Part shown: piece by piece, positions 9,142 to 14,533 of the stretch
How positions within the stretch are numbered: the stretch's first letter is position 1
Layout of the letters: each line of letters starts with the position of its first letter
Assembly: GCA_048939465.1 (NCBI GenBank)
Contig: JBHLPL010000007.1
Location: forward strand, 897 to 32,896
Direction of reading: 5' to 3'
Source of the DNA: Promethearchaeota archaeon
GTDB lineage: Archaea; Asgardarchaeota; Odinarchaeia; Odinarchaeales; JBHLKK01
DNA: 32,000 nucleotides
The notes under the pieces: model-generated
Told to the model about the DNA's origin: nothing
Seen by the model: only the letters and a program-made list of their open reading frames with translations
The model's database searches: none
Made by a program: the position numbers and the translations under genes

Positions 9142-10074
9142 CTAAGGCTTAGGAATTGCCAAATCCCTTGGTCCCTTACCGGAGAGCTTGACTTCTGGAC
9201 AATTCTTCTCAACGATATCCCTTATTATTTCTGCATATTTCACCTTCTCTCGAGCCATAAAAGCAAGCCAATCTGGGCTAACCCAAGGTTTGTAAGAATT
9301 ACCCACTGTGGGGCCAGGTTCAATTTTGAAATATACGGGGGCACATGTCCTTGCAATTTCTGGAGTATCATAGAATCTGACAAACCCACCGAAGCTGTCG
9401 AATAGATAGACATGAACATCTATCGGCATGCTGACTGAAGCTCTGATGGCGGCAAGTTGAGGTAGTGACAAGTCTCCCAGTGGATTGAATGTTGATGCAC
9501 CAAGTATTTCAAGGACTTTTCCTCCTGCTGGGTTACCGTGACCTGCGAAAATAGAAACCTTCAGAACCACATCCTTTGGGATTTCCCCAATTTTCTTCAA
9601 TTCGTTCAAGACCCACAAGAGTCCTTCATCGATGACAAGAAAACCTCTAAATCCAAACTCGATTGTTCTTTTAATATCTGCAATCACCTGTGCCAGCTGC
9701 TCTGATCCCCGGAACCGCATCCCTGACAAGGCCCCCTCAGGAGTAACGATTTGTCTTCCGACATCCCACGGGGATCTCGGTCCGGGAGTGATAATTACCT
9801 CCATTTTGGCGTCCGCAGCCGTTTTTGCAAACGCTTGAAGTTCCTCATCTGAAAGAAGTGTCGAACCCATAACCGTTGAGATTAACCTGTGAACAGGAAC
9901 ATCTCGCTTCTCGGCTTCATCGATCAAGGCCTCCAAAGTTGAAGGTCGTTCAACACCACTAATCTCCATTCGGTAATGGCATCCGTCTGGAAAACGTTTT
10001 TCTGAGGACGGAAGATCGTACCTGTCTCTTCCTGGGATTCCAATCTTTTCCAGCGCTTTTCTAACATTCTCCAT
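9142..10074 (-). CDS. TIM-barrel protein of the uncharacterised family often auto-annotated as U32 family peptidase
   Basis: PGRDRYDLPSSEKRFPDG..YRMEISGVE, VIITPGPRSPWDVG, GFRGFLVIDEGLL and PIDVHV. ATG at 10074 follows a GGAGGGG RBS; the ORF-track start at 10161 is likely too long. Family assignment is from recall. Confidence 0.6.
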   Translation of the reverse strand: MENVRKALEKIGIPGRDRYDLPSSEKRFPDGCHYRMEISGVERPSTLEALIDEAEKRDVPVHRLISTVMGSTLLSDEELQAFAKTAADAKMEVIITPGPRSPWDVGRQIVTPEGALSGMRFRGSEQLAQVIADIKRTIEFGFRGFLVIDEGLLWVLNELKKIGEIPKDVVLKVSIFAGHGNPAGGKVLEILGASTFNPLGDLSLPQLAAIRASVSMPIDVHVYLFDSFGGFVRFYDTPEIARTCAPVYFKIEPGPTVGNSYKPWVSPDWLAFMAREKVKYAEIIRDIVEKNCPEVKLSGKGPRDLAIPKP

Positions 10075-10150
10075 TTGCAAGTTATCCCCTCCTACTAAGT
10101 GATAAGCATTATTAATTAGAATGAAGGTATTAATTCTTTTCTGAATTTGA

Positions 10151-10164
10151 TTCATGAACATGAA
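10151..10164. promoter_or_regulatory. Palindrome TTCATG-AA-CATGAA in the divergent promoter region; candidate operator
   Basis: Perfect 6-bp arms between the U32-like gene and the DapA-Fae operon. Confidence 0.35.
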
Positions 10165-10206: not shown

Positions 10207-11640
10207 ATGAAGGAATTCAGACTCAAAGGTATTATGCCGGCGCTTGTTACGCCATTCACCAGAACAGGTGAGGTTGATCCAGGAGCATTCAAAAGACTGA
10301 TTCGGTTTGTGATCGAAGAAGGAGTTACAGGTATCCTGGCTGGTGGTACGACAGGTGAGTTCATAAATCTCTCGTTAGAGGAAAGGAAGGCCACAATCAA
10401 TCTTGCTGTAGACGAATCGAATGGACGTGTTCCTGTCATCGCCGGAACAGGTCATAGTTCCACAAGACAAACAATTGAGCTAAGCAATTACGCCTACGAT
10501 GCTGGAGCTGATGCAGGATTGGTCGTAGCTCCCTACTATCTAGGAGCCGCAGATAAGAGCCTTTATGAGCATTTCTATCGAGTTGCTGAGGCCGTTGAAC
10601 TTCCTCTGATTCTTTATAACATCCCCCAGTGTGCCGGTAATTATATTCCGCGTGAGGTCGTCGAGGATCTGGCCGCCATAGACAACATAGTTGGAATGAA
10701 GGATAGTAGTGGCAACTTCCCCTACTTGATGAGCCTTCTTGAAAAAGTCGGGGACAAGATCAGTATAGTCGTTGGATATGATGAGATTGTTTTTCCTGCT
10801 TTGGTAGCTGGAGCACAAGGTGCCATCCTGGCCAGCGCCAATATTATTCCCGACATCTGGCTAAAGATATATGATGCCGTGCAAAGCAACCATCTAGCTG
10901 AAGCTCGAAAGCTTCAGATGGAGATTCAAAAACTAACCAGGATAATTACCCGTCATGGTGGGGCACTCCCCGTCAAATCTGCTTTAAAAATGATGAATCA
11001 CAAAGTGGGCAAAACCAGGATGCCTATTGTCAGCGGAGGTTCTCTAACCTGGGAAGTCAGAGAAGAAATGAGGTTGGAGCTTGAGAAACTAGGCAAGATT
11101 AGAGCTGCGATGAAAAGGATTGAAAAAGTGGCAGAGCCCGTTAAGGAGCGTTTTAGGGACCTCGGTATAACGGTCGGTGACATTTCATCGCAGAGTCTTA
11201 AGATAGGAGAGGGTTCGGCCGGTGATGGTGCCGAATTCGTTGAAGCAAGCATCGTTGCAGGATCATCTGAAGGAGTTGTTGGAGAAGGATATGCCACTGC
11301 GTTAACTTGCCCAAGACCCGGTTATGAAGCCTTGACTGTTATTCTGGAGCCAAACCTGATGGTGAGGCCTCCAACAATAATCGTTCCGGAAGTCGAGATT
11401 AAAGACATGAGACAGGCAAGTATGATCTATGGTCCCGTACAGGCTGCTGCCGGAATGGCGATACTGGAGAATCTTAGGAATAGGATAATCCCAGAAGATG
11501 CAATTAGCAAGAATGTAATGATCCTAAAGATTTTTGCTCATCCTAGGGCCATTGATCGTTATAGTCTTTACTGGAACTGCTACGAGGCGATAGGAAAAGC
11601 TGTCAAGAGTGCTTGGCAAGGAGGAGAAAAAAATGAGTAA
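10207..11640 (+). CDS. DapA/NAL-family class I aldolase fused to a C-terminal formaldehyde-activating enzyme (Fae)-like domain, copy A (Fae His lost)
   Basis: N-terminal: GTTGEF, PYY, LYNIP and GMKDSSG (Schiff-base Lys165). C-terminal from about residue 331: KIGEG..GDGAE, VILEPNL..RPPTIIVP, Q..MIYGPVQAA, FAHP and Y..CYEAIGKAV, which align by eye to Fae. Confidence 0.85.
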   Translation: MKEFRLKGIMPALVTPFTRTGEVDPGAFKRLIRFVIEEGVTGILAGGTTGEFINLSLEERKATINLAVDESNGRVPVIAGTGHSSTRQTIELSNYAYDAGADAGLVVAPYYLGAADKSLYEHFYRVAEAVELPLILYNIPQCAGNYIPREVVEDLAAIDNIVGMKDSSGNFPYLMSLLEKVGDKISIVVGYDEIVFPALVAGAQGAILASANIIPDIWLKIYDAVQSNHLAEARKLQMEIQKLTRIITRHGGALPVKSALKMMNHKVGKTRMPIVSGGSLTWEVREEMRLELEKLGKIRAAMKRIEKVAEPVKERFRDLGITVGDISSQSLKIGEGSAGDGAEFVEASIVAGSSEGVVGEGYATALTCPRPGYEALTVILEPNLMVRPPTIIVPEVEIKDMRQASMIYGPVQAAAGMAILENLRNRIIPEDAISKNVMILKIFAHPRAIDRYSLYWNCYEAIGKAVKSAWQGGEKNE

Positions 11641-13111
11641 GAGAAAAGGCGGCTGGCTAAAGGGAGTCATGCCCGCTCTCATAACCCCGTTTGATAAGAA
11701 AGGAGAAATCAAGGAGGATTCGTTAAGAACTCTTGTGAACTACACTCTTGAATGTGGGGTTACCGGCGTTGTTCCGGTAGGTACCACGGGAGAATTCGTC
11801 AACCTATCAATCGAAGAACGAGAAAGGGTCTACGATATCGTTATTGATCAAGTGAATGGCAAAGTTCCTGTGATAATTGGTTCGGGTGATAGCGGTACCA
11901 GAGAGGTAATTCAGCTAACAAGGTACGGAAAGGATGCTGGGGCTGACGCAGCGCTTGTTGTCACTCCATACTTTTTGAAGCCAACCTACAAGGAGATTTT
12001 TGAGCATTTCAAGAAAGTCTCTGAAGAAGTAGACTTCCCGATAGTACTGTATAATATTCCTGCCTGTACTGATGTTCATATCGGTTGGTGGACGGTCGAG
12101 GGACTCGCTGATCTTGAGAACATAATTGGTATCAAGGATAGTAGCGGAAACATGTCTTTCATCATGACTCTGATGGAGAAGGTAAAGAAGAAGATTGCTG
12201 TAATGTGCGGCTGGGATGAGATCGGCTTTCCTGCTTTGGCTGCCGGAGCAGATGGTCTAATTTTGGCAAGCGCGAATCTGATTCCGGACATCTGGATCGA
12301 TCTCTATAACGCAGTTAAGGGCGAGGATTATGAGAAGGCCCGAAATCTACAGCTGAAAATACAGAAACTTGTAAGAATAGTCTGTAGACAAGGAGCAACT
12401 GAAGCTGTTAAGACAGGTCTGCAAATGATGGGTTTCGACGTAGGTTTTTCGCGTAAGCCAGTCGTAACGGGAGATATATTCCGCTATGAAGACCGCGAGG
12501 AATTGCGTCTGCAATTGGAAACCTTAAACAAAATAAGATCCAAGAGAATATCAATCTGTATTGACTCAAAAATTACTGAGAGTATGGTTGCTGCTATTCC
12601 TGAAACACCTGATACAATTCAAGATTTCGCTTTGAAAGTCGGTGAAGCTTTGGCAGGCCCCCCTTCGTTTGAAGTTGCCCATATTGACCTTCTTATCGGG
12701 AAAAAAGATGGACCCTTAAAAAAGGCTTGCGATAAGGCATTGTCCAATAAAATAATGGGACATGAACCGAAAGTTGTGCTTCAAAGACCGCTTACTCTTC
12801 TGATACCGACCGTCTCGGTCAGAACAGAGAAGCAGGCAGCACACGTTTATGAGTTTGCCTCAAAAGGAGTAGCAAGAGCTGTAGAAGCAAGCGTGAAGGA
12901 TGGTATAGTTCCTGAAGAAATCTTGGATGAAATACTTCTAATTGCAAATGCTTTCGTGCATCCAACAGCTGTCAATGAGAAGAGGATATATTTTAACAAT
13001 TACAAAGCAATGAGACATGCGATAAGGAAGGCCCTTGAAGAACGGCCGACAATTGATGAGCTTCTCCGCCTAGGTGAAACTGCCCGACACCCCTTCAGAT
13101 ACACTCCCTAG
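11633..13111 (+). CDS. DapA/NAL-family class I aldolase fused to a C-terminal Fae domain, copy B (Fae His retained)
   Basis: ATG at 11633 (GGAGGAG RBS) overlaps the stop of copy A. Motifs GTTGEF, PYF, LYNIP and GIKDSSG (Lys168). C-terminal KVGEAL..EVAHIDLLIGKKDGP, FVHP, NNYKAMRHAIRKAL and ARHPF match Fae. Confidence 0.88.
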   Translation: MSKRKGGWLKGVMPALITPFDKKGEIKEDSLRTLVNYTLECGVTGVVPVGTTGEFVNLSIEERERVYDIVIDQVNGKVPVIIGSGDSGTREVIQLTRYGKDAGADAALVVTPYFLKPTYKEIFEHFKKVSEEVDFPIVLYNIPACTDVHIGWWTVEGLADLENIIGIKDSSGNMSFIMTLMEKVKKKIAVMCGWDEIGFPALAAGADGLILASANLIPDIWIDLYNAVKGEDYEKARNLQLKIQKLVRIVCRQGATEAVKTGLQMMGFDVGFSRKPVVTGDIFRYEDREELRLQLETLNKIRSKRISICIDSKITESMVAAIPETPDTIQDFALKVGEALAGPPSFEVAHIDLLIGKKDGPLKKACDKALSNKIMGHEPKVVLQRPLTLLIPTVSVRTEKQAAHVYEFASKGVARAVEASVKDGIVPEEILDEILLIANAFVHPTAVNEKRIYFNNYKAMRHAIRKALEERPTIDELLRLGETARHPFRYTP

Positions 13112-13192: not shown

Positions 13193-14533
13193 TTGGATAA
13201 GAAAATAGTTGGCATTGCAGTCGCTGCAGTCATAGTGATAGGTGTCGGAGTTTCTGTCTGGTATTTCGTCCTGTTGCCCATGAATCCTCCGGAGAAGTGG
13301 GGTCTTGTTCTTGCCGCATCAAATGACTTCCATGGTGACAAAGATATGAGCATCCCGAATTCAGGTTTTGAGTTAGATCCATATGATCCATCTCCTTGGG
13401 AACCCAATGTATCGAGCGGTACATCTTGGAATATAGATACCACTGAAAGCCATAGTGGTCAGAATTCGTTGAAAATTAACTCATCTAATCCTGCTGGTGA
13501 TTCTGAGGTTTACCTACAGGCTCCTATAATGATAACACCGGGTCTTGAGTATATTCTCCGTGGCTGGATAAAAACTAGCAACGTTATCGGCTTCGCTACT
13601 ATAGGACTATGGTGGCTAAACAGCGGAGCCCCTCCATCACCAGTCAACATTGTTTCCAAGGTTTATTCAACACCTGGACTGAACGGAACAAACGACTGGA
13701 CACTGCTTACACTCTCTGCAGTCGCACCACCTACTGCTACCTTTGTCACTCCTATTCTGAGACTGAAAGGCACCGGAGTTGCTTGGTTTGATGACATTTC
13801 ATTCTTTGGGGTGTTTCAAACTCTTGTAACCGATTCAGATGCTTATCCTTCTCAAGCTCTTCAGGCTTACTATATACTCAAAGGCAATGGCTATGACGAT
13901 AATCACATAATTCTAATGCTCTACCACACAAACGATAGTGTCATAGACATATATGGCACCGGAGCAAACGATCTTACGAATGCTACAGTCGATGTGGAAA
14001 ATGATAATGTGAATAAAAGCAGATTCTCTTCCGAAGTCTTGAGTTTGGCATCCTTGGCTGATATCAACGATGATGTATTGATATATGTTGTGGCACATGG
14101 CTCTCGCACTGGAGACATAGCATCGATTCATTTCGAGTCAGATGGCAGTTCTATGAACGAGACGGAGTTCTCAACTCTTATAAACCAATTTAATTGCAGC
14201 AGGATGACCATTCTGGTTGATGGTTGCTACACTGGCAACTTCATAAGTTCTCTGAACGCTCCAGGTGAAAGTAGGATATCAATTTCAGCTGCAAGTAATA
14301 TCACGGCATGGTACTGGACTTCTTCAAATGCTAGCCACTATGCTGGCTCGTGGTTCTTCCATCCATTCTGGGAGAGACTCAAAACTGGAGTTAGCATAGG
14401 CTCTGCGCATCAATATGCGATTGGAACTATTCCGACGACAGTTGGACCATTTGCAAACACCACTGTGGATGATATTCAAAGCCCGATTCTGCAGGACAAC
14501 GCACTTGATGCGAACACCTACACATTCCTCTGA
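13193..14533 (+). CDS. N-terminally membrane-anchored clan CD cysteine peptidase (caspase/legumain C13-like) with an inserted CBM4/9-like beta-sandwich
   Basis: TM anchor at residues ~5-27; KWGLVLAAS strand; CBM-like segment (NSGFE...W...DTTESHSGQNSLKI...PGLEYILRGWIKT...WFDDISF); catalytic dyad VVAHG (His302) and LVDGCYTG (Cys345). Confidence 0.75.
   Translation: MDKKIVGIAVAAVIVIGVGVSVWYFVLLPMNPPEKWGLVLAASNDFHGDKDMSIPNSGFELDPYDPSPWEPNVSSGTSWNIDTTESHSGQNSLKINSSNPAGDSEVYLQAPIMITPGLEYILRGWIKTSNVIGFATIGLWWLNSGAPPSPVNIVSKVYSTPGLNGTNDWTLLTLSAVAPPTATFVTPILRLKGTGVAWFDDISFFGVFQTLVTDSDAYPSQALQAYYILKGNGYDDNHIILMLYHTNDSVIDIYGTGANDLTNATVDVENDNVNKSRFSSEVLSLASLADINDDVLIYVVAHGSRTGDIASIHFESDGSSMNETEFSTLINQFNCSRMTILVDGCYTGNFISSLNAPGESRISISAASNITAWYWTSSNASHYAGSWFFHPFWERLKTGVSIGSAHQYAIGTIPTTVGPFANTTVDDIQSPILQDNALDANTYTFL

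Follow-up and report, generated by a model that had tools for sequence, protein, structure and literature searches.

Complementary degeneration of paired aldolase–Fae fusion proteins in an Odinarchaeales genome suggests a composite Fae-like pocket

The window analysed here, a stretch of 32,000 nucleotides from a Promethearchaeota archaeon of the Odinarchaeales (assembly GCA_048939465.1, contig JBHLPL010000007.1, positions 897 to 32,896), contains two adjacent genes, designated hereafter copy A and copy B, which both encode a DHDPS/DapA-family aldolase domain followed by a domain of the Fae family (PF08714), as judged by Pfam. The two Fae domains have kept different parts of the Fae pocket, and it is fairly probable, judging from sequence comparison and modelling, that A and B assemble into a heteromer in which each A·B pair has a single composite Fae-like pocket. 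A composite site to which each paralogue gives one face had been put forward in a note made from the letters of the window alone (the original prediction); it gained support from each computational test applied, namely from the motifs, from a model of the A/B complex, from the conservation of the two faces and from the co-retention of both copies in other genomes. From these we infer the heteromer itself, as well as its catalysis, its carrier and the substrate of its aldolases.

The Fae domains were aligned with HMMER to Methylobacterium Fae (1Y5Y/1Y60), of which we take His22, Gln88 and the C-terminal arm to be the named functional elements. His22 is reportedly the acid catalyst and Gln88 is said to flip on coenzyme binding, which reportedly also orders the C-terminal arm. 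The Gln of GPAQ is chain residue 87 in the printed alignment, and the same +1 offset that gives His22 makes it Gln88. In copy A, the loop ILEPNLMVRP aligned with VIAPNLPCKP of the reference and YGPVQ with FGPAQ, Glu stood in place of the catalytic His, and the alignment stopped about 18 residues short of the HPF end, indicating that the C-terminal arm is absent. Copy B retained EVAHIDL and ARHPF, had a gap of five residues at PNLPC and had lost the GPxQ motif (Table 1). Among the Fae features tested, His22 and the HPF arm were found in B alone, and the PNL loop and Gln88 in A alone. The same division had been read from the letters in the original prediction, with a VIxPNL-type loop and a GP.Q helix kept by A and EVAHIDL and ARHPF kept by B, and its coordinates proved exact for both copies. 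Both domains passed the Pfam Fae cut-off of 27 bits, A matching profile positions 1–139 and B positions 1–158 of 159; against the NCBIfam equivalog domain TIGR03126 (cut-off 118.05), B passed (142) and A was narrowly below (116.8).

Complex prediction was run on the Fae domains of copies A and B as an A/B pair, a separate family alignment being supplied for each. The resulting model had an ipSAE interface score of 0.89 (0.89–0.90 in three runs) versus 0.02 for the best control; 58 of 80 solved complexes attained the mark used for this score, as did 2 of 110 mismatched pairs, a calibration that is rough since own alignments were used here. At least 84% of the contacts were common to the runs, with a per-residue confidence (pLDDT) of at least 86 for the partners. 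The confident interface comprised residues 35–37, 40–53, 55, 58, 60–68 (the EPNL loop), 70, 90, 93–94 (with 90, the Gly and Gln of GPxQ) and 101–118 of A, and residues 12–19, His29, Asp31, 33, 39–58, 68–74, 116, 118 and 141–166 (the arm, including Arg-His-Pro) of B. Because the His strand and arm of B contact the EPNL loop and Gln of A, the retained motifs are predicted to lie on opposite faces and to touch, as the notion of one face per paralogue had implied.

Column conservation was compared in 18 same-locus A/B pairs and in 22 proteins of a single-gene form that has all of these elements (S-type, see below). On the loop/Gln face it was 0.74 in A, 0.56 in B and 0.74 in S; on the His/arm face the values were 0.62, 0.79 and 0.80. 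The contrast persisted with the type-defining columns and the whole tail removed, A then exceeding B by 0.15 on the loop/Gln face and falling 0.16 below B on the His/arm face. It seems from the alignments and the model that only the contact between the His face of B and the loop face of A is under selection, the reciprocal contact being relaxed, and since one contact is conserved and the other relaxed, a heterodimer-type Fae unit fits better than a closed mixed ring.

These findings can be accommodated by the following scheme. The ancestor would have been a single fusion of a DapA-like aldolase to Fae, with a pterin pocket between neighbouring Fae subunits, one face of which carried His22 and the C-terminal arm and the other the PNL loop and Gln88. 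Once the gene had been duplicated, copy B would have retained the His/arm face only and copy A the loop/Gln face only, and a complete Fae-like pocket would arise solely where the His face of B meets the loop face of A. The reciprocal A/B contact would be degenerate and probably no longer important, and the Fae part would most likely be a heterodimer-type unit, not a symmetrical pentamer. The pocket would load or unload a one-carbon (C1) unit at the formaldehyde level on a pterin carrier, in this genome presumably tetrahydromethanopterin (H4MPT), given Mch and Ftr, and the fused lysine-Schiff-base aldolase would receive this C1 unit from the pocket or deliver it there. The sequences suggest that the A·B pair probably passes a C1 unit to fused aldolases other than DapA. 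A more specific version, in which the five-fold Fae ring has become an asymmetric A·B unit whose one composite pterin site feeds C1 units directly into a fused pyruvate-type aldolase, is tentative and, on the motifs and the model, somewhat doubtful.

Full-length relatives of both copies, at 50–60% identity, numbered in the hundreds and came from Thermoplasmata/Methanomassiliicoccales, Bathyarchaeia, Asgard groups, Hadarchaeum, Baldrarchaeia and Chloroflexota/Anaerolineae; the closest named relative of copy A was from a Hodarchaeota metagenome-assembled genome (MAG; 79% identity). A-like and B-like matches frequently lay on contigs of the same length. A full-text literature search found no paper on the aldolase–Fae fusion or its paired form. 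Fae-bearing frames extracted from 80 genome loci included 22 S-type fusion proteins, each a single gene with all four elements, from Bathyarchaeia and Promethearchaeota; 21 A-type proteins, without the His and the arm but with the loop and GPxQ; and 22 B-type proteins, with the His and the arm, the loop deleted and GPxQ lost. No mixed type occurred among the 66 locus-derived Fae domains (21 A, 22 B and 23 complete, the last being the 22 S-type fusions and the canonical Fae of this genome), and since the A/B split recurs in this way it is, as far as these domains indicate, not due to chance.

A wider set of 240 database sequences revealed intermediate forms on both sides. The His is kept, with the arm missing, in 40 of 109 A-like proteins (A'), and 19 of 120 B-like proteins (B') possess the arm and lack GPxQ, their loop being of normal length and of unrelated sequence. 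In view of these intermediates, the differences that appear universal are limited to the lack of the C-terminal arm in A and the lack of EPNL and GPxQ in B. The loss of the catalytic His noted for copy A in the original prediction is therefore correct for the gene in the window and does not extend to the A-like family as a whole, in which it is lineage-specific. His22 was kept in all 120 B and B' proteins, while its substitutes in A-like proteins were Q (34), R (12), K (6) and E (4), as well as Y, G, S, T, I, V and N, the four with E constituting the Hod-type clade to which the window belongs. In a tree built from the aldolase domains, His-bearing and His-less A forms were interleaved, and the starred branches force at least five independent losses. 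With at least five separate losses in A lineages and none in B, the Glu of copy A is, by this reconstruction, a late, lineage-specific step within a wider trend.

The invariant residues of the A-type Fae alignment (E62, N64, L65, R83, Q84, G90, P91 and Q93) and those of the B-type (E17, H29, R164, H165, Y169 and P171) are, as aligned, complementary. All fusion aldolase domains formed one clade apart from plain DapA-like proteins (support 99–100), within which the A and B clades branched alike (Thor-type, this genome, Methanomassiliicoccales, Chloroflexota); the S-type was placed unstably, joining A in one tree (support 85) and B in a second one (support 96).

A- and B-types were found together in Thor-type, Hod-type, Thermoplasmata and Anaerolineae genomes, the undegenerate S-type in Bathyarchaeia and Loki-type genomes. 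A was upstream of B in all 17 fetched loci holding both genes, which with the window make up the 18 pairs analysed. About 90% of carrier genomes had exactly two matches, sometimes unlinked. Among 400 genomes of the window's phylum, one Asgard family (f31) included 79 carriers, 71 with two Fae matches, seven with one and one with four; all of these matches had E values of about 1e-27 to 1e-36, indicating that f31 carriers have no canonical Fae, and the A/B pair of a named Thorarchaeota locus matched about as strongly. In a sample of 301 genomes from the class of an Anaerolineae carrier, 73 had matches and 66 of these exactly two, of which, in the genomes listed, one ended at profile position ~136–151 (no arm) and the other spanned 1–158. 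A good number of these genomes had their two matches on different contigs or ~30 kb apart, and in the six genomes with a single match, this match mostly fell at the end of a contig or within a truncated frame. Five S-type genomes that were checked had two Fae matches each, one canonical (220–238 bits) and one a single complete S-type fusion (190–213 bits). As two-match genomes include unlinked copies and the single copies checked are of the S-type, the degenerate A and B forms are apparently co-retained even when unlinked, single copies being of the complete kind. The expectation that homologous loci would hold both types was thus borne out by the two-match genomes in both samples; single-copy genomes, which if common would speak against an obligate pair, do exist, and all five checked carry the undegenerate S form.

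Several observations weigh against a heteromer with a composite pocket. The A/B score may stem from the predictor's memory of the solved Fae homopentamer (1Y5Y/1Y60), in which case it would reflect likeness to that interface and not binding; the faces were defined from contacts in the A/B model, not from crystal coordinates; and the contrast between faces after removal of the type-defining columns and tail (Mann–Whitney p 0.004 by identity and 0.0007 by BLOSUM) is rough, the columns not being independent. In the lineages of the 40 A-like proteins that keep His22, the A-side site may still work. Four pair-carrying genomes (three Anaerolineae, one Methanomassiliicoccales) lack Mch, and in them the ligand may be other than H4MPT or the pocket non-catalytic. 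Finally, a closed ring of five members cannot alternate A and B, and the quaternary structure must therefore differ from that of Fae.

The problem of the odd ring would disappear if the subunits were joined through their aldolase domains, the DHDPS fold being a known dimer-former, and if A and B formed separate A-only and B-only Fae rings with no composite site, one as a scaffold and the other as a weakened or altered Fae. Free Fae is pentameric (five chains per PDB entry), a fusion of two-fold and five-fold elements could, on geometric grounds, form a closed particle of two rings held together by A/B aldolase dimers, and both aldolase domains keep the catalytic Lys, Tyr and Thr. We nevertheless consider this arrangement unlikely, because the conservation pattern counts against it: a B-only ring requires the loop face of B, which has a five-residue deletion in an interface segment and is the least conserved surface of B (0.56 vs 0.79), and an A-only ring requires the His face and arm of A, which are relaxed or absent. 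Neither ring would hold both His22 and Gln88, and the model joins the A and B Fae domains with high confidence.

In the aldolase halves, the Schiff-base Lys161 (GMKDSSG/GIKDSSG), Tyr133 (LYNIP) and Thr44/45 (GTTGE) were present in both copies, and Lys161, Tyr133 and Thr44 were kept in all aligned A, B and S members except for one B-type with Ser at the Thr44 column. Both copies pass the NCBIfam dapA cut-off (TIGR00674). Arg138 of DHDPS, which binds aspartate semialdehyde, is Cys in both (YNIPQCAG vs YNVPGRTG in DHDPS); across the family this column holds Cys in the S- and B-types and either Val or Cys in the A-type. Owing to this replacement the fused aldolases were not taken as DapA, and the database name of both genes was rejected. 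A Tyr107-to-Phe change in the B aldolase, considered as a second complementary feature, was also rejected, as Y and F vary in all types. In most Anaerolineae A-type aldolases (for example L011, L019 and L021), QC(T/A)G has become QVVDA and ASAN has become ASAQ, while B stays S-like; copy A of the window keeps QCAG. The A aldolase half may, by these substitutions, be drifting toward a non-catalytic role, as seen in Anaerolineae.

The assembly containing the window (1.96 Mb, 91% complete) encodes, beside a divergently oriented Mch gene, a further, canonical Fae (410-aa frame at G000:C57:1532-3200; 243.8 bits), which is probably a Fae-Hps. Mch and three Ftr genes were present and FolD was not found in this genome, which together with the canonical Fae suggests that the organism uses H4MPT and is already equipped with a general Fae; with a separate canonical Fae beside Mch, the A/B pair would not be the general Fae of this genome. 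Homoserine dehydrogenase (PF00742) was not found in this 91%-complete assembly, while 14 of 14 control genomes have one; it was likewise not found in one Thor-type and one Bathyarchaeota fusion carrier, and was present in two Chloroflexota and one Methanomassiliicoccales pair carriers. Formation of 4-hydroxy-2-oxobutanoate, the keto acid of homoserine, is a candidate reaction of the A·B enzyme; its synthesis by the aldolase from pyruvate and a C1 unit agrees with the missing dehydrogenase in the first three genomes and is offered as a lead only. A role as a substitute for PanB (hydroxymethyl transfer making ketopantoate) was rejected as a simple replacement, since PanB is present in this genome and in a Thor-type genome.

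A/B pairs were also seen in bacterial MAGs that lack Mch and canonical Fae, namely L008 (a Sandaracinaceae MAG) and L004-L052 (Anaerolineae). In the trees, bacterial A and B copies branched inside the archaeal A/B clades, beside Methanomassiliicoccales copies. Such placement, together with hosts devoid of Mch and canonical Fae, suggests that the pair was transferred to bacteria as a unit and may use a carrier other than H4MPT there.

The occurrence of pairs in genomes without Mch (three Anaerolineae and one Methanomassiliicoccales), and in genomes without any canonical Fae, could also mean that the A·B Fae pair is a ligand-sensing or purely structural pseudoenzyme module for control or assembly of the aldolases; it would then bind a pterin or some other metabolite and carry out no C1 chemistry. 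Both domains also score far below canonical Fae (115–129 vs 244 bits). Such a module is rather unlikely in view of the presence of His22 in 120 of 120 B-type proteins and the invariance of Gln88 and the EPNL loop in the A-type, a pattern expected for retained pocket chemistry and not for shape alone. That one copy is simply decaying after a recent duplication, with complementarity a coincidence, is highly improbable: the copy A of the window is of the most degenerate kind, with both His and Asp gone, but family-wide data contradict decay. Intact A and B genes of long standing are inherited together in Asgard, Thermoplasmata, Bathyarchaeia and Chloroflexota, and their trees are congruent; each type has preserved a set of invariant residues, and both copies persist even where they are unlinked.

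The proposed heteromer with a composite pocket shares its family (PF08714), fold and inter-subunit pocket with free Fae of Methylobacterium extorquens (1Y5Y/1Y60), His22, Gln88 and the arm each being present once per A·B pair. In free Fae, however, every subunit of the homopentamer supplies both faces, whereas here each paralogue would supply one, both are fused to an aldolase, and the ring must differ in size or have been lost. Archaeal Fae-Hps (NF009833) resembles the pair in that Fae is joined to a formaldehyde-producing or formaldehyde-consuming TIM-barrel enzyme of the aldolase type, so that formaldehyde and pterin are coupled in one protein, and by analogy with it formaldehyde may be handed between the pterin pocket and the enamine/Schiff-base chemistry of the aldolase. 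The partner here is instead a DapA/NAL-family lysine-Schiff-base aldolase and not a hexulose-phosphate synthase, the order is aldolase then Fae, and the Fae part is split over two paralogues that score 115–129 bits, compared with 244 bits for Fae-Hps. Only the Fae part of the NF009833 profile was matched (positions 2–141 or 2–160 of 392), far below the cut-off and with no match to the hexulose-phosphate synthase domain. Likeness to DapA consists in the fold, 35–45% identity to solved DHDPS, and the conserved Lys161, Tyr133 and Thr44/45; the fusions differ in the Cys at Arg138, in forming a separate clade and in their extra Fae domain.

Heteromers of paralogues in which one interface site is active and the other dead are known from trypanosomatid deoxyhypusine synthase (two paralogues) and from AdoMetDC and its prozyme, and complementary interface losses have reportedly been described in the fungal V-ATPase ring. 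As in those systems, duplication of a homo-oligomer would have been followed by complementary losses that leave only the hetero-interface functional and make each paralogue dependent on the other. The folds and chemistry are unrelated to theirs, and here the undegenerate S-type survives in sister lineages, which provides a before/after comparison. The complementary split is thus a variant of known principles; the present analysis adds that the motifs map to opposite faces in the model and that conservation differs between the faces, together with a count of co-retained copies, the finding that His22 was lost repeatedly in A and never in B, and the A' and B' intermediates.

If the proposed scheme is correct, hundreds of genes labelled 'DapA' in Asgard archaea, Bathyarchaeia, Thermoplasmata and Anaerolineae would encode an unstudied enzyme linking pterin-bound C1 units to 2-oxo-acid chemistry, which in many lineages would work only as a pair. 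For protein evolution, this would be a rare system in which a complete single-copy form and a complementary degenerate pair both occur in living lineages, and the route from homomer to obligate heteromer could be tested through a few defined elements, namely Gln88, the PNL loop, His22 and the arm. In metabolic reconstructions, a single copy, whether A or B, ought not to be annotated as a functional Fae, nor as DapA.

Copies A and B are co-directional, A lying directly upstream of B in the window. The most likely start of copy B is the ATG, which lies 8–12 nt downstream of a GGAGG, as read from the sequence, and not the GTG chosen by the open reading frame finder; an identical database protein (P0001, 492 aa) begins at the same ATG. 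This ATG overlaps the end of A by 8 nt, and as an overlap with the stop of A behind a GGAGG fits translational coupling, the junction suggests that the two genes are coupled. The positions of all features are given in Table 1.

Table 1. Genes and Fae motifs of the A/B locus and adjacent genes, with positions in the window.
Feature	Positions	Strand	Description
Copy A	10207..11640	+	477 aa; DapA-family class I aldolase (aa 6-276) and A-type Fae (aa ~331-477); Pfam DHDPS 253.5 bits, Fae 114.8 bits
Copy B	11633..13111	+	492 aa from ATG 11633 (500 aa from GTG 11609); DapA-family aldolase and B-type Fae; Pfam DHDPS 254.6 bits, Fae 128.7 bits
A/B junction	11619..11640	+	GGAGG-like ribosome-binding stretch, then ATG 11633 of B overlapping the last codons and stop of A (ATGAGTAA)
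Glu codon GAA at the Fae His22 position, copy A	11242..11244	+	Residue 346 of A, in AEFVEASI; next-but-one residue Ser, not Asp
EPNL loop kept, copy A	11347..11358	+	E, N and L invariant in 60 A-type domains; inside the modelled interface
YGPVQ (start of GPxQ helix), copy A	11428..11442	+	Gln aligns with Fae Gln88; G, P and Q invariant in A-type domains
His codon CAT of EVAHIDL (Fae His22), copy B	12680..12682	+	Residue 358 of B counted from GTG; inside the modelled interface
VVLQ/RPL, copy B	12773..12793	+	Five-residue deletion (at the stroke) removing the PNL loop
YEFAS replacing FGPAQ, copy B	12848..12862	+	Gln88 lost
ARHPF of the C-terminal arm	13082..13096	+	In copy B only; R and H invariant, P and F nearly so; touches copy A in the model
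Divergent gene	9142..10161	-	339 aa; no Pfam match; peptidase-U32-like features; recurs beside A/B pairs; context only
446-aa protein	13193..14533	+	Directly downstream of copy B; N-terminal hydrophobic stretch; weak peptidase C13 (legumain-like) match, 39.6 bits

Among the neighbouring genes, the one directly downstream of copy B was not conserved beside the pair in other loci, and the remaining neighbours (nitroreductase, S-adenosylhomocysteine hydrolase, TrmI, peroxiredoxin and others) were lineage-specific and gave no functional lead. The divergent gene upstream of copy A had as its language-model look-alikes clusters of 316-aa proteins annotated as 'hypothetical / U32 family peptidase' (score 0.98), and may be a conserved third partner. 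Its homologues adjoin the pair in five A/B loci, and it shows weak similarity (E 1e-4, 26% over 200 aa) to a 430-aa gene by S-type loci, where that gene lies directly upstream of the fusion in 19 of 22 cases (21 of the 23 loci holding a member of its gene cluster).

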